NCBI RefSeq assembly: GCF_056712565.1
Contig: NZ_CM160072.1
Length of the DNA: 64,000 nucleotides
Strand: one strand, 5' to 3'
The notes under the pieces are model-generated. The model saw only the letters and a program-made list of their open reading frames with translations, searched no databases and was not told the origin of the DNA. Position numbers and translations under genes: made by a program. Shown piece by piece: positions 3,017-64,000 of the stretch (position 1 is its first letter; each line of letters begins with the position of its first letter).

Positions 3017-3556
3017 TTACCCTCTGAATCCTGGTGGAATTTGGCTGTCAGGTTCACTGACCGTATTCACATCTCGTTTCGGCAGTCCGCCGTTGCTGGC
3101 ACGACCGATTTGCAGGCTGCGCGCCAGTTTTTGTTGCCACTGCACATGGTGAAAGACTTTGCCTTCCGCCTGCCAGTAGGCAATGAATGACGCCAGTTCT
3201 TCGGCGGTCACCGACTCTCTTAGTGCCACGCCCCATAGCGCCGCCAGGCGGATAAAGTCGGCATCGGGTTGCCAGTCTGGGTACATGGCAAATTTCCCCA
3301 TGGGTACGGCAACGGGAGCGGTTTGCGGTTCCTGATAGAGTTGATCGTCCAGAGCGACATCGCTTCCCGGACGCGCCAGCTTTTCTTCCAGCGCCAGCAG
3401 TTCAGCCAGGCGTGCAGGAGTGATGGCATAAAACGCCGGGGCATTGTTAGCAAATACGGCAACCACACCGCCTTCAGCTTTTGCCAGAACGGTTTGGTGA
3501 TCGTGTACCAGGGCGTCAATACCAACGACGTCCGGGGTCAAAACTCTGGAAGACAT
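3017..3556 (-). CDS. dnaT: Primosomal protein DnaT
   Basis: ORF-track frame 3017..3568; internal Met giving [21 protein letters not shown] (179 aa) matches DnaT; 3 bp from dnaC. Confidence 0.9.
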
Positions 3557-3663: not shown

Positions 3664-4898
<1,235 letters not shown>

Positions 4899-4961
4899 AA
4901 CTCGCCCTTTGTCATAGACGTGCTGCGTATTGTTCAGATAATGAGAATCCATTTGTATCAT

Positions 4962-5517
4962 GAAGCACGGTTGTTTTGCGGTAGGTTAAGATCAAAATTG
5001 CGCTGATTAATCCTGGTTATCGGGAGATGCTCGGTGATAAAAAGCGAATTATCTCTCGCCGTAAACAAACTATCGCATGAATATTATCACTATAATGAAT
5101 TTGTTATTTGGCCTTTACGAGTCAGGATAATAGATAGCTGGGCGCGTTTTTTTATGTTAACAAGTTAAAACCATCAGATTTTATTGAATAAATATTGATT
5201 GTGTGATTCCCGCACTCTGCGGGAAGAGATATTATTTAATTATAAATTAAATGAATGAGATTTCTGTTTTTCATTAAGTATTTCTAACAACTTAATGTAG
5301 ATATTTTAAATGTCTCCAGGCTATTTCACCAGGTTATCATTTGATGCTAACCTTCTGACACATGCAGTGGAGTTGTTGTGCAGCAGGAGTATGCTGATAT
5401 GAAAGTGAATGCTAAGGATAATTTATTCGCTTAATCTATTAATTTGCTGGAAATATTTAAGGAATGAATGCCTTGAATAAACCATCATGATTTTTAGACA
5501 GTGGATGTGGAGGAAAT
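4962..5517 (+). promoter_or_regulatory. AT-rich leader/promoter region of the yjjQ-bglJ operon (expected H-NS target)
   Basis: Roughly 550 bp of strongly AT-rich non-coding sequence (runs such as ttatttaattataaattaaatgaatgag) immediately upstream of yjjQ. H-NS silencing and LeuO activation are recalled from the literature, not visible in sequence. Confidence 0.6.
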
Positions 5518-6243
5518 ATGTTGCCAGGATGCTGCAAAAATGGAATTGTTATCAGTAAAATACCTGTTATGCAAGCAGGGTTAAAAGAGGTCATGAGGAC
5601 TCACTTCCCTGAATATGAAATAATATCCAGCGCCTCTGCGGAGGACCTTACCTTATTACAATTACGTCGTTCCGGATTAGTCATTGCTGATTTGGCCGGT
5701 GAAAGTGAAGATCCACGTTCCGTTTGTGAGCATTATTACTCTTTAATCTCACAATATCGGGAAATTCACTGGGTTTTCATGGTGTCACGCTCCTGGTATT
5801 CCCAGGCAGTAGAATTGCTCATGTGCCCTACGGCGACGTTATTGTCTGATGTTGAACCCATTGAGAATCTGGTCAAGACCGTACGTTCCGGCAATACGCA
5901 CTCAGAGCGTATCAGCGCCATGCTGACCTCTCCGGCAATGACTGAAACTCATGATTTTAGCTATCGCTCCGTCATTCTCACTCTTTCAGAGCGCAAGGTA
6001 CTGCGGCTATTAGGTAAAGGATGGGGCATCAACCAGATAGCTTCATTGCTTAAGAAAAGTAATAAAACTATTAGCGCCCAAAAAAACAGTGCGATGCGTC
6101 GACTGGCAATTCACAGCAACGCTGAAATGTATGCATGGATAAATAGCGCGCAGGGTGCAAGAGAACTTAACTTGCCTTCTGTTTATGGAGATGCCGCAGA
6201 ATGGAACACAGCCGAATTAAGAAGAGAAATGTCGCACTCATAG
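5518..6243 (+). CDS. yjjQ: LuxR/FixJ-type transcriptional regulator YjjQ
   Basis: 241-aa ORF; C-terminal LuxR-type HTH ([41 protein letters not shown]). Confidence 0.9.
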
Positions 6244-6878
6244 AAAAATGCGTCATGAGTCGTATCGGTATTGAGAGTTTATTCAGAAAGTTTGCAGGTA
6301 ACCCTTATAAGCTCCATACCTATACCAGTCAGGAGTCATTTCAGGATGCCATGTCGCGGATCTCGTTTGCAGCGGTCATTTTTTCTTTTTCTGCCATGAG
6401 AAGTGCGCGCAGAGAGGGATTATCCTGCCTGACTGAACTGGCGATTAAGTTTCCGCGTACCCGGCGTTTAGTTATTGCGGATGATGATATTGAAGCTCGG
6501 CTGATTGGTTCATTGTCGCCATCACCGCTGGACGGTGTATTAAGTAAAGCGTCAACGCTGGAGATTTTTCATCAGGAACTCTTTTTGTCATTAAATGGTG
6601 TACGTCAGGCGACCGATCGACTGAACAATCAGTGGTACATTAACCAAAGCCGGACGTTAAGCCCGACGGAGAGAGAAATATTGCGCTTTATGTCGCGTGG
6701 CTACTCAATGACACAAATTGCCGAGCAGCTTAAACGCAATATTAAAACGATCCGTGCACATAAATTTAATGTGATGTCGAAACTGGGCGTCAGTTCTGAT
6801 GCAGGGTTGTTGGAGGCCGCAGATATTCTGTTATGTATGCGGCATTGCGAAACAAGTAATGTGTTGCATCCTTATTAA
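6201..6878 (+). CDS. bglJ: LuxR-type regulator BglJ (RcsB partner)
   Basis: 225-aa ORF overlapping the yjjQ 3' end by 43 nt; C-terminal [48 protein letters not shown]. Confidence 0.9.
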
Positions 6879-6915
6879 TCCGCATGATGCCGGGTTTACT
6901 TCCCCGGCAGTGCTT

Positions 6916-7704
6916 TCATTTCAGCGTACAATCGCCACATTGCTGCACATCCGGTAAGCGATAACGCTGGCAGCAAGTGCGGCGCACCAGCAGGCCGTCG
7001 CGTAGCACCACGGTACGCCAGAGTGGATTATCTTCACCGGTAGTAAGCGTTTTCTCAAAAAAGAGGGCATAGCGCAGCGATTCAACCGTCGCCTCGCCGA
7101 GCAGCTGTTTCATCTCAGTCAGATACCAGTTGATCAAATAACCGGTATTGCTCCAGATAAGTTTGCCGTTAATCTCTCCCGTTGCTTCTAGTGCCTGCAG
7201 AACCGGAACCAGCGCCTGGCTGATTAACGTTTCCATTCGCTGCTGCGGCGAATGTAGTGTTGCGTTTTTATCTTCACACACATCGACCCAGAAACAGGCG
7301 GCGCGTCCGGTTTCGTGAAACTCAACGTGGACATGTTCCGGCGACACATCTAATGCTTTTTCCTGAGTCAGCAGCGCCAGCATTAATGGTGGTACCATCA
7401 GGCCGATATACCATTGCGCCCACAGTGAGATAAGCGGTTTGTTTTCGCGGATCATCAAAGGTTGGTTGCGGTAGATATGATCGGAATAGACCGCGAGTAG
7501 AGAACTTAGCGCATTCGGTGATGACCATTGCGCCAGCGTCATGGCGTTAAGTGGGGCGGGTTCATCCAGGCGGATAAACTCCAGCAAATGTTCACGATGT
7601 TCGGCGATCGTTGCCCGCACGGCTTGTGCAAGCCCAGCATCCTGCGGCTGGAGATGCGTTCGCCAGATAACATCTTCATAGAGCGGTGCGGAACGATAGG
7701 CCAT
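6916..7704 (-). CDS. fhuF: Ferric-siderophore reductase FhuF (2Fe-2S protein)
   Basis: 262-aa ORF; C-terminal cysteine cluster RRTCCQRYRLPDVQQCGDCTLK. Confidence 0.95.
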   Translation of the reverse strand: MAYRSAPLYEDVIWRTHLQPQDAGLAQAVRATIAEHREHLLEFIRLDEPAPLNAMTLAQWSSPNALSSLLAVYSDHIYRNQPLMIRENKPLISLWAQWYIGLMVPPLMLALLTQEKALDVSPEHVHVEFHETGRAACFWVDVCEDKNATLHSPQQRMETLISQALVPVLQALEATGEINGKLIWSNTGYLINWYLTEMKQLLGEATVESLRYALFFEKTLTTGEDNPLWRTVVLRDGLLVRRTCCQRYRLPDVQQCGDCTLK

Positions 7705-55981: not shown

Positions 55982-57898
55982 ATGGGTAAAATAATTGGTA
56001 TCGACCTGGGTACTACCAACTCTTGTGTAGCGATTATGGATGGCACCACTCCTCGTGTACTGGAGAACGCCGAAGGCGATCGCACCACGCCTTCTATCAT
56101 TGCCTATACCCAGGATGGTGAAACTCTGGTTGGTCAGCCGGCTAAACGTCAGGCAGTGACGAACCCGCAAAACACCCTGTTTGCGATTAAACGCCTGATT
56201 GGCCGCCGCTTCCAGGACGAAGAAGTACAGCGTGATGTTTCCATCATGCCGTTCAAAATTATTGCTGCTGATAACGGCGACGCATGGGTCGAAGTTAAAG
56301 GCCAGAAAATGGCACCGCCGCAGATCTCTGCTGAAGTGCTGAAAAAAATGAAGAAAACCGCTGAAGATTACCTGGGTGAACCGGTAACTGAAGCTGTTAT
56401 TACCGTACCGGCATACTTTAACGATGCTCAGCGTCAGGCAACCAAAGACGCAGGCCGTATCGCTGGTCTGGAAGTAAAACGTATCATCAACGAACCGACC
56501 GCAGCTGCGCTGGCTTACGGTCTGGACAAAGGTACTGGCAACCGTACTATCGCGGTTTATGACCTGGGTGGTGGTACTTTCGATATTTCCATTATCGAAA
56601 TCGACGAAGTTGACGGCGAAAAAACCTTCGAAGTTCTGGCAACCAACGGTGATACCCACCTGGGTGGTGAAGACTTCGACAGTCGTCTGATCAACTATCT
56701 GGTTGAAGAATTCAAGAAAGATCAGGGCATTGACCTGCGCAACGATCCGCTGGCAATGCAGCGCCTGAAAGAAGCGGCAGAAAAAGCGAAAATCGAACTG
56801 TCTTCCGCTCAGCAGACCGACGTTAACCTGCCGTACATCACTGCAGACGCGACCGGTCCGAAACACATGAACATCAAAGTGACTCGTGCGAAACTGGAAA
56901 GCCTGGTTGAAGATCTGGTAAACCGTTCCATTGAGCCGCTGAAAGTTGCACTGCAGGACGCTGGCCTGTCCGTATCTGATATCGACGACGTTATCCTCGT
57001 TGGTGGTCAGACTCGTATGCCAATGGTTCAGAAGAAAGTTGCTGAATTCTTTGGTAAAGAGCCGCGTAAAGATGTTAACCCGGACGAAGCTGTAGCCATC
57101 GGTGCTGCTGTTCAGGGTGGTGTTCTGACTGGTGACGTAAAAGACGTACTGCTGCTGGACGTTACCCCGCTGTCTCTGGGTATCGAAACCATGGGCGGTG
57201 TGATGACCACGCTGATCGCGAAAAACACCACTATCCCGACCAAGCACAGCCAGGTGTTCTCTACCGCTGAAGACAACCAGTCTGCGGTAACCATCCATGT
57301 GCTGCAGGGTGAACGTAAACGTGCGGCTGATAACAAATCTCTGGGTCAGTTCAACCTGGATGGTATCAACCCGGCACCGCGCGGCATGCCGCAGATCGAA
57401 GTTACCTTCGATATCGATGCTGACGGTATCCTGCACGTTTCCGCGAAAGACAAAAACAGCGGTAAAGAGCAGAAGATCACTATCAAGGCTTCTTCTGGTC
57501 TGAACGAAGATGAAATCCAGAAAATGGTACGCGACGCAGAAGCTAACGCCGAAGCTGACCGTAAGTTTGAAGAGCTGGTACAGACTCGCAACCAGGGCGA
57601 CCATCTGCTGCACAGCACCCGTAAGCAGGTTGAAGAAGCAGGCGACAAACTGCCGGCTGACGACAAAACTGCTATCGAGTCTGCGCTGACTGCACTGGAA
57701 ACTGCTCTGAAAGGTGAAGACAAAGCCGCTATCGAAGCGAAAATGCAGGAACTGGCACAGGTTTCCCAGAAACTGATGGAAATCGCCCAGCAGCAACATG
57801 CCCAGCAGCAGACTGCCGGTGCTGATGCTTCTGCAAACAACGCGAAAGATGACGATGTTGTCGACGCTGAATTTGAAGAAGTCAAAGACAAAAAATAA
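55982..57898 (+). CDS. dnaK: Hsp70 chaperone DnaK
   Basis: 638-aa [41 protein letters not shown]... Confidence 0.99.
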
Positions 57899-57986: not shown

Positions 57987-59117
57987 ATGGCTAAGCAAGA
58001 TTATTACGAGATTTTAGGCGTTTCCAAAACAGCGGAAGAGCGTGAAATCAAAAAGGCCTACAAACGCCTGGCCATGAAATACCACCCGGACCGTAACCAG
58101 GGTGACAAAGAGGCCGAGGCGAAATTTAAAGAGATCAAGGAAGCTTATGAAGTTCTGACCGACTCGCAAAAACGTGCGGCATACGATCAGTATGGTCATG
58201 CTGCGTTTGAGCAAGGCGGCATGGGCGGCGGCGGTTTTGGCGGCGGCGCAGACTTCAGCGATATTTTTGGTGACGTTTTCGGCGATATTTTTGGCGGCGG
58301 ACGTGGTCGTCAACGTGCGGCGCGCGGTGCTGATTTACGCTATAACATGGAGCTCACCCTCGAAGAAGCTGTACGTGGCGTGACCAAAGAGATCCGCATT
58401 CCGACTCTGGAAGAGTGTGACGTTTGCCACGGTAGCGGTGCAAAACCAGGTACACAGCCGCAGACCTGTCCGACCTGTCATGGTTCTGGCCAGGTGCAGA
58501 TGCGCCAGGGTTTCTTTGCCGTGCAGCAGACCTGTCCACACTGTCAGGGCCGCGGTACGCTGATCAAAGATCCGTGCAACAAATGTCATGGTCATGGTCG
58601 TGTTGAGCGCAGCAAAACGCTGTCCGTTAAAATCCCGGCAGGGGTGGACACTGGAGACCGCATCCGTCTTGCGGGCGAAGGTGAAGCGGGTGAACACGGC
58701 GCACCGGCAGGCGATCTGTACGTTCAGGTTCAGGTTAAACAGCACCCGATTTTCGAGCGTGAAGGCAACAACCTGTATTGCGAAGTCCCGATCAACTTCG
58801 CTATGGCGGCGCTGGGTGGTGAAATCGAAGTACCGACCCTTGATGGTCGCGTCAAACTGAAAGTGCCTGGCGAAACCCAGACCGGTAAGCTGTTCCGTAT
58901 GCGCGGTAAAGGCGTCAAGTCTGTCCGCGGTGGCGCACAGGGTGATTTGCTATGCCGCGTTGTTGTCGAAACACCGGTAGGTTTGAACGAGAAGCAGAAA
59001 CAGCTGCTGCAAGAGCTGCAAGAAAGCTTTGGTGGCCCAACCGGCGAGCACAACAGCCCGCGTTCAAAGAGCTTCTTTGATGGCGTGAAGAAGTTTTTTG
59101 ACGACCTGACTCGCTAA
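57987..59117 (+). CDS. dnaJ: Hsp40 co-chaperone DnaJ
   Basis: ORF-track frame 57957..59117; ATG at 57987 gives [40 protein letters not shown] (J domain), Gly/Phe-rich linker, four CxxCxGxG zinc-finger repeats; 376 aa. Confidence 0.99.
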
Positions 59118-59194
59118 CCTCCCCAAAAGCCTGCCCGTGGGCAGGCCAGGGTAAAAACCAGGGTGCGTTGAAGATATGCGAGCACCTGTAAAGT

Positions 59195-59214
59195 GGCGGG
59201 GATCACTCCCCGCC
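59195..59214. terminator. Stem-loop between dnaJ and the hokC 3' end
   Basis: ggcggggatcactccccgcc perfect inverted repeat; could terminate dnaJ and/or form the 3' structure of the hok mRNA. Confidence 0.5.
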
Positions 59215-59221
59215 GTTGCTC

Positions 59222-59374
59222 TTACTCGGATTCGTAAGCCGTGAAAACAGCAACCTCCGTCTGGCCAGTTCGGATGTGAACCTCACAGAGGTCTTTTCTC
59301 GTTACCAGCGCCGCCACTACGGCGGTGATACAGATGACGATCAGGGCGACAATCATCGCCTTATGCTGCTTCAT
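59222..59374 (-). CDS. hokC: Type I toxin HokC/Gef (small membrane toxin)
   Basis: Translation MKQHKAMIVALIVICITAVVAALVTRKDLCEVHIRTGQTEVAVFTAYESE (50 aa), Hok/Gef family. Confidence 0.93.
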   Translation of the reverse strand: MKQHKAMIVALIVICITAVVAALVTRKDLCEVHIRTGQTEVAVFTAYESE

Positions 59375-59431
59375 TGCTCTCTTCTCCTTGACCTTACGGT
59401 CAGTAAGAGGCACTCTACATGTGTTCTGCAT
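59222..59431 (-). CDS. mokC: MokC, overlapping reading frame translationally coupled to hokC
   Basis: Same frame, upstream ATG at 59431 giving MQNTCRVPLTDRKVKEKRA-MKQHK... (69 aa). Confidence 0.8.
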   Translation of the reverse strand: MQNTCRVPLTDRKVKEKRAMKQHKAMIVALIVICITAVVAALVTRKDLCEVHIRTGQTEVAVFTAYESE

Positions 59432-59477
59432 ATAGGGGGCCTCGGGTTGATGGTAAAATATCACTCGGGGCTTTTCT
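59423..59477 (+). ncRNA. sokC: SokC antisense RNA (approximate position)
   Basis: Placed only by the expected position relative to the mokC start in hok/sok loci; not verified by promoter or structure. Confidence 0.4.
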
Positions 59478-59985
59478 CTATCTGCCGTTCAGCTAATGCC
59501 TGAGACAGACAGCCTCAAGCACCCGCCGCTATTATATCGCTCTCTTTAACCCATTCTGTTTTATCGATTCTAATCCTGAAGACGCCTCGCATTTTTGCGT
59601 AATCAATCTTTAGTACATTGTTTATTTTAACTCTTATGTGCGTTTTCATTTACAAAAGTTGAGATTATGAACAAGAGGTTTAAGTTATGCCTGAATGGTG
59701 AGTTATTACTGGAGAAAGTAATAGAAGATACAAAATATTCTTGTACAGAATTGAATTTTCTTTTTGTGAGGAAAAATGTTTATAAATCAATGAGTGATAT
59801 TTAAAATCGACACACTTTTTGAAACACGATACCTCCACACCCGGGGGTAAAAGTAATCTGCGATCTCCATCACGCTTTGCCATTCACCTTTAAATATACT
59901 TTCTGAGTCGTTCTTAATCAAAATGAATTATCTGATGTATTGATTTCTATGGAACCATAAAAAAAATGAATGGAGAGCATATTAT

Positions 59986-60747
59986 ATGTCTGCCAAAAGA
60001 CGGCTTCTTATTGCGTGTGCCCTGACAACGATTTTCTATCACCTTCCTGCATATTCTTCATTAGAATATAAAGGTTCCTTTGGCTCAATAAATGCAGGTT
60101 ATGCTGACTGGAATAGTGGCTTCATTAACACTCATCGTGGTGAAGTATGGAAAGTGACTGCAGACTTTGGTGTGAATTTTAAAGAAGCCGAGTTTTACTC
60201 ATTTTATGAAAGCAATGTGCTTAACCATGCCGTAGCGGGGCGTAATCATACCGTTTCTGCTATGACACATGTCAGACTCTTTGACTCCAATATGACTTTC
60301 TTTGGCAAGATCTATGGTCAATGGGATAACTCATGGGGTGACGATCTTGATATGTTTTATGGTTTGGGCTACCTCGGCTGGAATGGTTCATGGGGGTTTT
60401 TTAAACCGTATATTGGATTACATAATCAATCTGGAGACTACGTCTCAGCCAAATATGGACAAACAAATGGCTGGAATGGTTATGTTGTTGGCTGGACAGC
60501 AGTATTACCTTTTACGTTATTTGACGAAAAATTTGTTTTATCTAACTGGAATGAAATAGAACTGGACAGAAATGATGCCTATGCGGAACAACAATTTGGT
60601 CGGAATGGGCTAAATGGCGGTTTAACAGTAGCCTGGAAGTTCTATCCTCGCTGGAAAGCCAGTGTGACGTGGCGTTATTTCGATAATAAGTTGGGCTACG
60701 ATGGTTTTGGCGATCAAATGATTTATATGCTTGGTTATGATTTCTAA
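59986..60747 (+). CDS. Tsx/OmpK-family outer-membrane channel
   Basis: 253-aa ORF; signal peptide MSAKRRLLIACALTTIFYHLPAYS; aromatic/Gly-rich beta-strand pattern (WNGSWGFFKPYIG; WNGYVVGWTAV); C-terminal ...MLGYDF resembling Tsx ...GYNF; RBS tggagag; AT-rich. Confidence 0.7.
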   Translation: MSAKRRLLIACALTTIFYHLPAYSSLEYKGSFGSINAGYADWNSGFINTHRGEVWKVTADFGVNFKEAEFYSFYESNVLNHAVAGRNHTVSAMTHVRLFDSNMTFFGKIYGQWDNSWGDDLDMFYGLGYLGWNGSWGFFKPYIGLHNQSGDYVSAKYGQTNGWNGYVVGWTAVLPFTLFDEKFVLSNWNEIELDRNDAYAEQQFGRNGLNGGLTVAWKFYPRWKASVTWRYFDNKLGYDGFGDQMIYMLGYDF

Positions 60748-60766
60748 TTTTCATCAGGGAATAATT

Positions 60767-62260
60767 ATGCAGAAAACATTAATGGCCAGTTTGATCGGCC
60801 TTGCAGTTTGCACAGGGAATGCTTTTAATCCAGTCGTAGCTGCCGAGACTAAACAACCCAATTTAGTCATCATTATGGCGGATGATTTAGGCTATGGTGA
60901 TTTAGCAACATATGGACATCAGATCGTTAAAACACCCAATATTGACAGGCTTGCCCAGGAGGGCGTCAAATTTACTGACTACTATGCACCAGCTCCCTTA
61001 AGTTCTCCTTCGCGGGCGGGGTTATTAACGGGGCGGATGCCATTTCGTACCGGCATACGTTCATGGATCCCAACGGGAAAAGATGTGGCATTAGGGCGTA
61101 ATGAACTCACGATTGCTAATCTACTCAAAGCGCAAGGGTATGACACGGCCATGATGGGTAAGCTGCATCTGAATGCAGGCGGCGATCGCACCGATCAGCC
61201 GCAGGCAAAAGATATGGGCTTTGATTACTCACTGGTTAATACGGCGGGTTTTGTTACCGACGCCACGCTGGATAACGCTAAAGAACGCCCGCGTTATGGC
61301 ATGGTTTACCCGACAGGCTGGCTACGTAACGGGCAACCCACTCCACGAGCCGATAAAATGAGCGGTGAGTATGTCAGTTCGGAAGTCGTCAACTGGCTGG
61401 ATAACAAAAAGGACAGCAAGCCTTTCTTCCTCTATGTTGCTTTTACCGAAGTGCATAGCCCCCTGGCTTCGCCCAAAAAATACCTCGACATGTACTCACA
61501 ATATATGAGCGCGTATCAGAAGCAGCATCCTGATTTATTTTATGGCGACTGGGCAGACAAACCCTGGCGTGGTGTGGGGGAATATTATGCCAATATCAGC
61601 TATCTGGATGCACAGGTTGGAAAAGTGCTGGATAAAATCAAAGCGATGGGTGAAGAAGATAACACAATCGTTATTTTTACCAGTGATAACGGTCCGGTAA
61701 CGCGTGAAGCGCGCAAAGTGTATGAGCTGAATTTGGCAGGGGAAACGGATGGATTACGCGGTCGCAAGGATAACCTTTGGGAAGGCGGAATTCGTGTTCC
61801 AGCCATTATTAAATATGGTAAACATCTACCACAGGGAATGGTTTCAGATACACCCGTTTATGGTCTGGACTGGATGCCTACTTTAGCGAAAATGATGAAC
61901 TTCAAATTACCTACAGACCGTACTTTCGATGGTGAATCGCTGGTTCCTGTTCTTGAGCAAAAAGCATTGAAACGCGAAAAGCCATTAATTTTCGGGATTG
62001 ATATGCCATTCCAGGATGATCCAACCGATGAATGGGCGATCCGTGATGGTGACTGGAAGATGATTATCGATCGCAATAATAAACCGAAATATCTCTACAA
62101 TCTGAAATCTGATCGTTATGAAACACTTAATCTGATCGGTAAAAAACCAGATATTGAAAAACAGATGTATGGTAAGTTTTTAAAATATAAAACTGATATT
62201 GATAATGATTCTCTAATGAAAGCCAGAGGTGATAAACCAGAAGCGGTGACCTGGGGCTAA
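60767..62260 (+). CDS. Periplasmic sulfatase, Ser-type (S-x-P-S-R)
   Basis: ORF-track frame 60731..62260; ATG at 60767 with RBS aggga; signal peptide MQKTLMASLIGLAVCTGNAFNPVVAAE; N-terminal IIMADDLGYGD and signature APAPLSSPSRAGLLTGR; 19 bp after the channel gene. Confidence 0.85.
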   Translation: MQKTLMASLIGLAVCTGNAFNPVVAAETKQPNLVIIMADDLGYGDLATYGHQIVKTPNIDRLAQEGVKFTDYYAPAPLSSPSRAGLLTGRMPFRTGIRSWIPTGKDVALGRNELTIANLLKAQGYDTAMMGKLHLNAGGDRTDQPQAKDMGFDYSLVNTAGFVTDATLDNAKERPRYGMVYPTGWLRNGQPTPRADKMSGEYVSSEVVNWLDNKKDSKPFFLYVAFTEVHSPLASPKKYLDMYSQYMSAYQKQHPDLFYGDWADKPWRGVGEYYANISYLDAQVGKVLDKIKAMGEEDNTIVIFTSDNGPVTREARKVYELNLAGETDGLRGRKDNLWEGGIRVPAIIKYGKHLPQGMVSDTPVYGLDWMPTLAKMMNFKLPTDRTFDGESLVPVLEQKALKREKPLIFGIDMPFQDDPTDEWAIRDGDWKMIIDRNNKPKYLYNLKSDRYETLNLIGKKPDIEKQMYGKFLKYKTDIDNDSLMKARGDKPEAVTWG

Positions 62261-62308
62261 CCTGATAATCATAATAAATGTAATGTATGCCATTTAGGGC
62301 TATGCCCG

Positions 62309-62346
62309 CCTGATTCAGTGCTACGCATTGAATCAGGTTCTTTTCG
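62309..62346 (+). terminator. Rho-independent terminator after the sulfatase gene
   Basis: cctgattcagtg-ctacgc-attgaatcagg hairpin followed by ttcttttcg. Confidence 0.65.
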
Positions 62347-62388
62347 CGTTGAACAATATCAAGATACGGCTATTCGCAGGGAGTGGAT

Positions 62389-63648
62389 ATGTTTACCAAC
62401 GTAAATGTTGATTGTTGCAAAACACCAGGATGTAAAAACCTGGGGTTGCTGAATAGCCAGGATTATGTCGCACAGGGTAAAAATATTTTATGCCGTGAAT
62501 GTGGTTACTTGTTTCCAGTGATATCTGAACAGTCGCTTAATATTTATCGTAATATTGTGAATCACTCCTGGAGAGGTTTGATTTGCCAATGTTCAACTTG
62601 CGGAGGCACGTCCCTCAAAAAATATGGATATTCTGCACAAGGCCAGAGAAGAATGTATTGCCATCATTGTGAGAAAACATTTATCACTCTGGAACATGTA
62701 ATTACCACACCACGAGGAGCCCTGTTAGCATTGATGATTGAGCAAGGGGAGGCACTTGCGGATATCAGAAAGTCATTACTTCTTAACAGCACTGGACTTA
62801 GCCGTGAACTGTTAAAATTAGCGCGTGAAGCAAACTATAAAGAAAGTCGACAGTGTTTCCCAGCTTCTGATATTACCCTGAGTACCCGCGCTTTTCGCGT
62901 CAAGTATAATGGTAGCAATAACTCTCTTTATGCTCTTGTTACCGCAGAAGAACAAAGCGGCAGGGTGGTTGCCATCTCAACCAATTACTCCCCATCTGCC
63001 GTAGAGCAACATTATCAATACACATCGAACTATGAAGAGCGTATGTCTCCAGGGACGCTGGCACATCATGTCCAGCGCAAAGAGTTACTTACTATGCGGC
63101 GGGATACCTTGTTTGATATTGATTACGGCCCGGCAGTTTTACATCAAAACGATCCGGGAATGTTGGTAAAACCGGTTCTTCCGGCATATCGTCATTTTGA
63201 ACTGGTCAGAATACTGACCGATGAGCATTCCAACAACGTTCAGCATTACCTTGATCACGAATGCTTTATATTGGGCGGCTGCCTGATGGCTAATTTGCAG
63301 CATATTCATCAAGGTCGCTGCCATATTTCCTTTGTCAAAGAGCGCGGTGTGGCACCCGCCACCATTGATTTTCCACCGCGATTATTCCTTAGTGGTGGGG
63401 TACGAAATAATGTCTGGCGTGCATTTTCTAACCGCAATTATTCAATGGCTGTATGCAATCTCACTGGCAGTAAGAAAGTCCGCGAGATGCGGCATGCAAC
63501 ATTGAACAGTGCGACGCGTTTTATCCACTTTGTGGAGAACCATCCTTTCCTTATATCATTGAACCGAATGTCTCCTGCGAATGTCGTTTCTACATTAGAT
63601 ATCCTCAAACATCTGTGGAATAAAAAACTAGAGCATGGAACAATTTAA
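62389..63648 (+). CDS. Hypothetical cysteine-rich protein with two N-terminal transposase-type zinc ribbons
   Basis: ORF-track frame 62383..63648; ATG at 62389 preceded by gcagggag RBS; 419 aa; ribbon 1 CCKTPGC-x19-CREC, ribbon 2 CQCSTCGG-x17-CHHCEKTF (G-x-Q-R-x-x-C-x-x-C-x-K-T-F), followed by about 300 aa with no motif I can assign. Confidence 0.6.
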   Translation: MFTNVNVDCCKTPGCKNLGLLNSQDYVAQGKNILCRECGYLFPVISEQSLNIYRNIVNHSWRGLICQCSTCGGTSLKKYGYSAQGQRRMYCHHCEKTFITLEHVITTPRGALLALMIEQGEALADIRKSLLLNSTGLSRELLKLAREANYKESRQCFPASDITLSTRAFRVKYNGSNNSLYALVTAEEQSGRVVAISTNYSPSAVEQHYQYTSNYEERMSPGTLAHHVQRKELLTMRRDTLFDIDYGPAVLHQNDPGMLVKPVLPAYRHFELVRILTDEHSNNVQHYLDHECFILGGCLMANLQHIHQGRCHISFVKERGVAPATIDFPPRLFLSGGVRNNVWRAFSNRNYSMAVCNLTGSKKVREMRHATLNSATRFIHFVENHPFLISLNRMSPANVVSTLDILKHLWNKKLEHGTI

Positions 63649-63882
63649 TTATTACTTTTCCGAATAATTTCTTCAGAAATCTTGACATTAGACTATGATT
63701 AATGGGGTTTAAGGTCATCAGCCGCCGCTTTCGGGCATCAAAAACTCATCTCTCGCTGATGGCGCAATTCTTTTAATAGATCGTAAAAAGCGAGCTATTC
63801 CTACACTATAATCTGATTTTAACGATGATTCGTGCGGGGTAAAATCGTGAAAACGATCTATTCACCTGAAGAGAAATAAAAA

Positions 63883-64000
63883 GTGAAACATCTGCATCGA
63901 TTCTTTAGCAGTGATGCCTCGGGAGGCATTATTCTCATTATTGCCGCTGTATTAGCGATGATTATGGCCAACAGCGGTGCAACCAGTGGATGGTATCACG
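63883..64000 (+). CDS. nhaA: Na+/H+ antiporter NhaA, N-terminal fragment; runs off the right edge
   Basis: GTG at 63883 gives [39 protein letters not shown], matching the NhaA N-terminus as I remember it. Confidence 0.9.

Follow-up and report, generated by a model that had tools for sequence, protein, structure and literature searches.

Sulfatases of the S1 family rely on a formylglycine residue, which in pairs such as AtsA/AtsB of Klebsiella and AslA/AslB and YdeN/YdeM of E. coli is provided by a radical-SAM/SPASM enzyme. Ser-type sulfatases are regarded as dependent on such anaerobic sulfatase-maturating enzymes (anSMEs). It is known that anSMEs convert either Cys or Ser (PMC5682303), and in E. 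coli AslB and YdeM are putative anSMEs, with a third, unidentified system being suspected (PMC8379841). Here we describe a three-gene islet of ~4.0 kb, located between the hok/sok locus and nhaA at ~59600/59640 to 63638 of a stretch of 64,000 nucleotides (contig NZ_CM160072.1 of RefSeq assembly GCF_056712565.1; the whole stretch is referred to as the window). All three genes are intact, and encode a Tsx/OmpK-like outer-membrane channel, an S1-family sulfatase and a Cys-rich protein (ORF3). Unlike the sulfatase/maturase pairs above, the sulfatase of this islet has no adjacent maturase, even though its orthologues usually do. We consider it highly probable that the islet was inherited vertically, and is the reduced form of an old four-gene cluster of enterobacteria upstream of nhaA. 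In full, the ancestral cluster would have encoded a Tsx/OmpK-like channel, a periplasmic sulfatase, the radical-SAM maturase anSME and a transposase-derived protein with Zn-ribbon and helix-turn-helix (HTH) modules. In the ancestor of Escherichia, the maturase gene would have been cleanly removed and the catalytic Cys79 of the sulfatase replaced by Ser. Later, most E. coli lineages, including K-12, O157:H7, O111 and 042, would have deleted the remaining three genes, while B2 and F strains, at least, would have kept them.

The islet and its counterparts upstream of nhaA

Orthologous clusters by nhaA in Klebsiella, Kosakonia, Phytobacter, Citrobacter and Salmonella share genes, order and chromosomal position with the islet, the sulfatase being 86-89%, ORF3 64-66% and the channel 55-77% identical to the window in amino acid sequence. 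Escherichia differs from these clusters by the absence of the anSME gene, and by Ser instead of Cys at residue 79 of the sulfatase. Of the sister species, E. albertii has the order dnaJ-hok-channel-sulfatase-ORF3-nhaA, and the loci of E. whittamii and Escherichia sp. MOD1-EC7003, which stop short of dnaJ, read channel (cut off at the locus start)-sulfatase-ORF3-nhaA. The order dnaJ-channel-sulfatase-anSME-ORF3-nhaA is found in Klebsiella quasipneumoniae, Kosakonia, Phytobacter diazotrophicus, P. ursingii and UBA3516, and a metagenome-assembled genome of Citrobacter shows the same four genes up to nhaA as in Klebsiella, its locus again stopping short of dnaJ. In Salmonella (in strain LT2 presumably STM0034-STM0037) and other Citrobacter, sulfatase-anSME-ORF3 adjoin nhaA, the channel gene is inverted, and additional genes for an aryl-sulfotransferase and a 5'-nucleotidase-like protein are present. 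Buttiauxella, Franconibacter and one more distant contig carry the four-gene module with no nhaA found in the fetched flank, the more distant relative having it at another chromosomal site. Between dnaJ and the channel gene, hok/sok is absent in Klebsiella (locus positions 5791-6392, corresponding to window 59118-59985) but present in E. albertii and E. coli, which makes this toxin-antitoxin locus an Escherichia-lineage insertion beside an older sulfatase cluster.

An earlier note on this DNA, made from the sequence alone, had described an AT-rich interval of about 4 kb with genes for an outer-membrane channel, a sulfatase and a Cys-rich protein, and had considered it to be either horizontally acquired or differentially retained. 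Both the gene calls and the composition hold. Positions 59637-63638 have a GC content of 42.6%, against a mean of 51.4% (standard deviation 2.6) for 4-kb windows across the 64 kb; this is essentially the lowest-GC 4-kb stretch, since only 0.6% of windows are equally low and all of these overlap the islet. GC at third codon positions is also lower, with 0.36-0.43 for the three islet genes versus 0.53-0.56 for nhaA and dnaJ. Such a composition, and the patchy occurrence in 24% of genomes, could indicate an island brought into the B2/F lineages of E. coli by horizontal transfer, and acquisition was the leading idea of the note. The nearest relatives of the islet alleles, E. whittamii for the B2 sulfatase and ORF3 (95-97%) and Escherichia sp. 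MOD1-EC7003 for the F haplotype (94-96%), are likewise compatible with homologous import of alleles. However, in every genus checked, Klebsiella and Salmonella included, the GC content of the cluster is below that of its flanks, so that low GC cannot be taken here as a sign of recent transfer. Furthermore, the presence of the same genes at the same position in sister species and other genera largely refutes an outside origin. The compared islet-less junctions are uniform, as a single deletion predicts, and the islet, consisting of only three genes, contains no integrase, tRNA, att site or att-like repeats. We thus regard acquisition from outside as very improbable, and of the two options given in the note it is retention that stands.

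The absence of the islet from K-12, which the note had stated, was borne out by alignment. Both K-12 and PigCaeca_2 align to the window until ~59596, followed by weak collinear similarity until ~59636-59668, and alignment resumes at 63639, in the last codons of the third gene. In place of the ~4.0 kb and its three genes, K-12 has ~80-118 bp of unalignable AT-rich DNA. While the islet is real, the interval of 59480 to 63700 assigned to it was slightly wide: 59480-59596 is conserved hok/sok-side sequence and 63639-63700 is common nhaA upstream sequence, and K-12 has both (the flank 63639-64000 of this B2 haplotype is ~86% identical to that of K-12). The mokC-nhaA spacer of K-12, PigCaeca_2 and the phylogroup-D strain 042 is 585 bp long, gap-free and 97.6-98.3% identical, and the match span in islet-less genomes is constant at 977 bp unless interrupted by an insertion sequence (IS) element. 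Such a common junction is what a single deletion, subsequently inherited or spread, would be expected to leave, and K-12 is without the islet owing to deletion.

Direct or inverted repeats flanking the breakpoints, the former suggested as a check by the note, amount to short AT-rich matches at chance level (the 8-mer TTATTACT, and a 19-nt pair that is 79% complementary), and were rejected as att-like sites. Likewise, the ~80-bp filler of K-12 shows no significant similarity to islet sequence, its best local alignment scoring 13 versus a mean of 11.7 and a maximum of 19 for shuffled sequences. At the left breakpoint (window 59580-59600), the K-12 locus (~3340-3370) contains ACGCC-N12-GGCGT, a terminator-like hairpin with AATTTTTT after it, where the window has a shorter ACGC-N11-GCGT without the T-run; the breakpoint may have altered the transcript end on the hok/sok side.

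Among 5,426 complete E. coli genomes, the islet was found in 1,277 (~24%) and ORF3 in 1,280, in each case at one place on the chromosome, with no plasmid-borne copy. Carriers include CFT073 (in which c0020 is dnaJ), ST131, ST95-type strains, the type strain DSM 30083 and the phylogroup F strain IAI39, and the islet stretch of the window is 100% identical to that of E. coli ZJ3920 and O2:K1:H7/ST95-type strains. It is missing from K-12, O157:H7, O111:NM and 042. In SL124, an IS1 takes the place of the channel gene and the larger part of the sulfatase gene, of which a 276-bp 3' fragment is left, and ORF3 is intact (SL124 locus 5289-7642); this is an independent route of partial loss of the islet.

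The channel, the sulfatase and the missing maturase

The channel protein, named 'outer membrane protein OmpK' in RefSeq, resembles the Tsx (nucleoside channel)/OmpK family in its match to Channel_Tsx (PF03502, E 6.7e-14), its small-beta-barrel size, its N-terminal signal peptide and its C-terminal Phe (...GYDF). It differs in that the Pfam model is matched by the C-terminal 150 residues only (105-253). With NCBIfam PRK11528 it reaches 120 bits, under the cut-off of 282, and it is not equivalent to that named family; no sequence match to any solved structure was found. A sulfated small molecule would cross the outer membrane via this channel, and would then be hydrolysed in the periplasm by the Sec-exported sulfatase.

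The sulfatase carries a signal peptide and matches Pfam Sulfatase (PF00884) over residues 31-378 (E 2.6e-59), and its metal-binding and catalytic motifs (DDLG, GKLHL, VHSP, SDNGP and GRKDNLWEGG, as read from the translation) are all kept. Its relatives in the PDB include 3ED4, steryl-sulfatase and GALNS. The first of these, a structural-genomics entry entitled 'putative arylsulfatase from E. coli' (NYSGXRC, unpublished), is ~98% identical over 492 residues, including SSPSR, and represents the ST131/CFT073-type allele of this same gene. It has served as molecular-replacement model for choline sulfatase (PMC9063841), and no published substrate or activity was found for it.

The (C/S)-x-P-x-R nucleophile motif is present as S79-S-P-S-R-AGLLTG. 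Residue 79 is Ser (AGT) in 10 out of 10 Escherichia alleles examined, and Cys (TGT/TGC) in all 18 non-Escherichia orthologues with the motif found, whether or not an anSME gene lies beside them. When Escherichia is compared with nine genomes from other genera, residue 79 is among only 8 positions with a fixed amino acid difference. The anSME gene is present in 15 of the 19 non-Escherichia orthologous loci examined and missing in all Escherichia, where the conserved terminator and the downstream ribosome-binding site (RBS) are kept on both sides of the gap. The distance between sulfatase gene and ORF3 is 128 bp, and that from terminator to RBS is 30-55 bp in Escherichia, versus the ~1.2 kb of anSME in other genera; the RBS itself, CGCAGGGAGTG, directly 5' of ORF3, is kept in every genus, Escherichia included. 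A tblastn search of the 128-bp gap and the rest of the window yielded no credible anSME remnant. Independent losses of anSME occurred in K. oxytoca, K. spallanzanii, Phytobacter massiliensis and Kluyvera intermedia, all with Cys79 kept, and only in Escherichia are maturase loss and the Cys-to-Ser change combined. As Ser-type sulfatases are regarded as anSME-dependent, a Ser-type enzyme without its own maturase is unexpected. What would become of Ser79? Either a maturase whose gene lies elsewhere, such as AslB or YdeM, would turn it into formylglycine, or the enzyme would work with an unmodified serine.

All alleles of the three ORFs are intact. Pairwise dN/dS between diverged alleles is 0.02-0.17 over dS 0.09 to ~1.2 (channel 0.03-0.08, sulfatase 0.02-0.05, ORF3 0.08-0.17), close to that of nhaA (mostly 0.01-0.05), with near-identical allele pairs giving higher values that are uninformative. 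All three islet genes are under strong purifying selection. This bears on the idea that the islet is a decaying remnant, with a catalytically dead sulfatase and genes heading for loss as in most E. coli. The loss of anSME and the fixation of C79S in Escherichia, the deletion of the whole islet in ~76% of genomes and the loss to IS1, in SL124, of the channel gene and all but a 3' fragment of the sulfatase gene would all be in line with such decay. However, 10 out of 10 Escherichia sulfatase alleles are intact and their low dN/dS holds over dS up to 0.87, unlike a pseudogene, and the other active-site motifs are kept, with just the 8 fixed differences from other genera. Moreover, E. coli has the other putative anSMEs AslB and YdeM (PMC8379841), and these enzymes convert Ser too (PMC5682303). 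Intact alleles, low dN/dS and kept motifs make a dead remnant unlikely, catalysis itself aside.

The third protein and its relation to IS1

ORF3 combines two Zn ribbons with an InsA-like HTH, and its core, RNase-H-like and of the transposase type, has no DDE triad. Compared with IS1 InsA and the IS1 transposase, it has an extra N-terminal Zn ribbon, no match to InsB and no DDE triad, and it is not mobile. Its start at 62389 (MFTNVNVD) is common to all orthologues. With hhalign, residues 64-145 align to residues 4-88 of InsA, covering Zn ribbon and HTH (96% probability, E 1.6e-9), and no match to InsB was obtained. Nothing significant was found in Pfam, and in NCBIfam only the IS1/IS1595 Zn-ribbon domain, at 28 bits, which equals the cut-off; with the IS1 whole-protein model it scores 19.5 bits, where the cut-off is 100. 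Homologues that match over the full length, at 54-85% identity, exist across the Enterobacteriaceae, and the 324 relatives returned by a profile search include many full-length ones at ~20-40% identity. In some distant relatives ~130 of the 199 model positions of the IS1 transposase are matched, with scores under the cut-off. Relatives in AFDB come from Enterobacterales and Vibrionaceae, and are labeled either 'cytoplasmic protein' or 'IS1 family transposase'.

Could the third gene then be an active IS1-family insertion sequence, and the islet partly a mobile element? RefSeq and UniProt label some members 'IS1 family transposase' or 'IS1/IS1595 N-terminal zinc-binding domain protein', the Zn ribbon and HTH match InsA, and the fold is of the transposase type. 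Nevertheless, across 63 members of the family neither strand 1 (T166 in 86%) nor the segment after strand 4 (K261-P262) has a conserved acidic residue, E291 being the only position that is always acidic. The gene occupies a single place per genome in 1,280 genomes, which is the same place across genera, terminal inverted repeats were not found, dN/dS across genera is ~0.1, and the score with the IS1 whole-protein model is far under its cut-off. We therefore give hardly any credence to an active insertion sequence, and read ORF3 as a transposase-derived, non-catalytic DNA-binding protein. At the place of the DDE active site (residues 238-298), R238, H269, H286, H290, E291 and often C292/C298 are conserved; R238 and H269 are invariant, as is P262, and H286 and H290 are conserved in 81-87%. 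This cluster in the old catalytic pocket could be a metal or ligand site, and suggests a new function.

Close members of the ORF3 family sit in sulfatase clusters. Distant relatives (~20-25% identity) with readable context adjoin nucleoside/nucleotide genes in six out of six cases, which is a small sample. One is divergent from deoB-deoD-nucleoside permease, a second is divergent from a NupC-type transporter and a nucleoside phosphorylase, and three lie beside a UshA-like 5'-nucleotidase. The sixth, from the one locus found in a metagenome scan, is a split family gene (ORFs 3851-4387 and 4656-5255) amid genes for a sulfatase, a 5'-nucleotidase, DeoD and an anSME. Together with the Tsx-type porin of the islet, and the 5'-nucleotidase-like gene of Salmonella and Citrobacter, these neighbours suggest a link to the scavenging of nucleotide-like or sulfated small molecules. 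The third protein would bind DNA via its InsA-like module, thereby regulating the cluster.

Just 3' of the sulfatase stop codon, the sequence TATGCCATTTAGGGC (62286-62300) is strongly conserved across genera, and in the window and 15 other taxa TATGCCAYTTAGGGC-nnTGCCCGCC is more conserved than the neighbouring coding sequence. The islet holds no second copy of the TATGCCAYTTAGGGC motif, the only other match in the window requiring 3 mismatches, which is at chance level. The motif loosely resembles the IS1 left end ATGCTGCCAACTTA, as seen at ~5238-5251 of the SL124 locus, but the likeness is weak; the motif may be a binding site for the InsA-like third protein. The hairpin that follows (62308-62338) has 14 pairs and then TCTTTT, and across 15 taxa 7 of the 16 predicted pairs show compensatory changes on both sides. 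In Rfam, sok (59372-59524) is the sole match, the conserved motif and the terminator matching no family. None of the three proteins matches a PADLOC defence model, and PHROGs returned nothing beyond Zn-ribbon and generic sulfatase matches.

We tentatively put forward two linked readings, which we hold to be possible rather than probable: that ORF3 is the founding member of an exapted, catalytically dead IS1-like family, and that the sulfatase went from Cys to Ser with either a maturase acting in trans or a bare serine as nucleophile. According to the former, the family, widespread in Enterobacterales and Vibrionaceae, would comprise transcription factors or sensors for periplasmic scavenging genes. 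According to the latter, maturation would take place via AslB or YdeM encoded elsewhere, and so would probably depend on anaerobiosis, or else the bare serine would serve, possibly with an altered substrate.

Divergent haplotypes and layout of the locus

At the nucleotide level, the channel gene of the window is 99.3-99.7% identical to that of IAI39/M172 and 90% to that of ST131/CFT073 (dS 0.55), and its upstream spacer (59597-59985) shows a similar division, with ~99% to IAI39 versus 60-80% to CFT073/ST131. For ORF3 the affinity is reversed, with 99.8% to ST131 and 80.6% to IAI39/M172 (dS ~1.0, as deep as E. albertii), and for the sulfatase gene identity is 96.7% to ST131 and 91.5% to IAI39. 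The ST95-type sequence of the window is a recombinant, being ~99% identical to IAI39 (phylogroup F) from 59487 to ~60830, and ~100% to CFT073/ST131 (B2) from ~61290 onward. Across genomes, ORF3 identity is bimodal, with 1,044 genomes at 99% or above and 229 at 80-90%. The divergence extends through nhaR: between window/CFT073 and IAI39, nhaA is 92-93% and the 3' part of nhaR 76-87% identical, compared to 98-100% for dnaJ. Against K-12, nhaA of the window is 93% identical (dS 0.30) and dnaJ 98% (dS 0.085). From the islet through nhaR, old and divergent haplotypes seem to form a single block, and these may stem from either ancient polymorphism or introgression.

Several points weigh against reading the islet as a vertically inherited and functional remnant. 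The divergence of its alleles is far above the norm for E. coli genomes, meaning that homologous imports of divergent alleles did happen and that 'purely vertical' is too simple. Presence and absence do not strictly follow one clean split either, as SL124 still holds ORF3 while having K-12-like features, namely an IS421 family element between dnaJ and mokC (as in K-12) and a near-K-12 nhaA. With Ser-type sulfatases thought to be anSME-dependent and the cognate anSME gone, the enzyme could be inactive or repurposed. Finally, the working proposed for channel, sulfatase and third protein is predicted from the genes, and a role as regulator of the cluster, which is most likely for ORF3, is read from its architecture and gene linkage only. 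The positions of the islet features and of the neighbouring genes are given in Table 1.

Table 1. Islet features and neighbouring genes, in window positions
Feature	Position	Strand	Remarks
dnaK	55982-57898		
dnaJ	57987-59117		
hokC/mokC	59222-59374	-	
sok RNA	59372-59524	-	Rfam match
Islet left edge and AT-rich channel-gene upstream region	59597-59985		GC 31.5% for 59637-59985; K-12 similarity falls after 59596 and has ended by ~59640-59670
Tsx/OmpK-like outer-membrane channel gene	59986-60747	+	253 aa
S1-family sulfatase gene	60767-62260	+	497 aa, periplasmic (predicted)
Recombination breakpoint zone within sulfatase gene	60840-61290		150-bp sliding identity
Formylglycine-precursor codon AGT, Ser79	61001-61003	+	within S-S-P-S-R motif
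Conserved sequence TATGCCATTTAGGGC, 3' of sulfatase stop codon	62286-62300	+	
Intrinsic-terminator-like hairpin and T-tract after sulfatase gene	62308-62345	+	
Site of missing anSME gene	62346-62388		
Third gene (ORF3), Cys-rich protein	62389-63648	+	419 aa
nhaA upstream region common to K-12	63639-63882		follows right breakpoint 63638/63639
nhaA	start 63883		

The islet as such is ordinary, being among many presence/absence regions that part B2 and F strains from K-12-like E. coli. It is already annotated in public genomes, and our literature search found no description of the locus. The Cys-to-Ser change with maturase loss in Escherichia, the transposase-derived third gene and the deep haplotypes were not found in the literature searched, and we consider these moderately interesting. 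At the least, this case shows that low GC between core genes need not signify recent transfer. The sulfatase-ORF3-nhaA-nhaR haplotypes diverge within E. coli as much as Escherichia species do from each other. With its transposase fold and missing catalytic triad, and its link to genes for sulfatases and nucleotide scavenging, the conserved, immobile third protein may be a domesticated bacterial DDE transposase. Furthermore, a natural Cys-to-Ser switch with loss of the cognate maturase, in an enzyme that is still strongly selected, bears on the question of how sulfatases are matured in E. coli. And since the islet is carried by major extraintestinal lineages (ST131, ST95 and ST73), a role in the use of sulfated substrates from the gut or host is worth testing.

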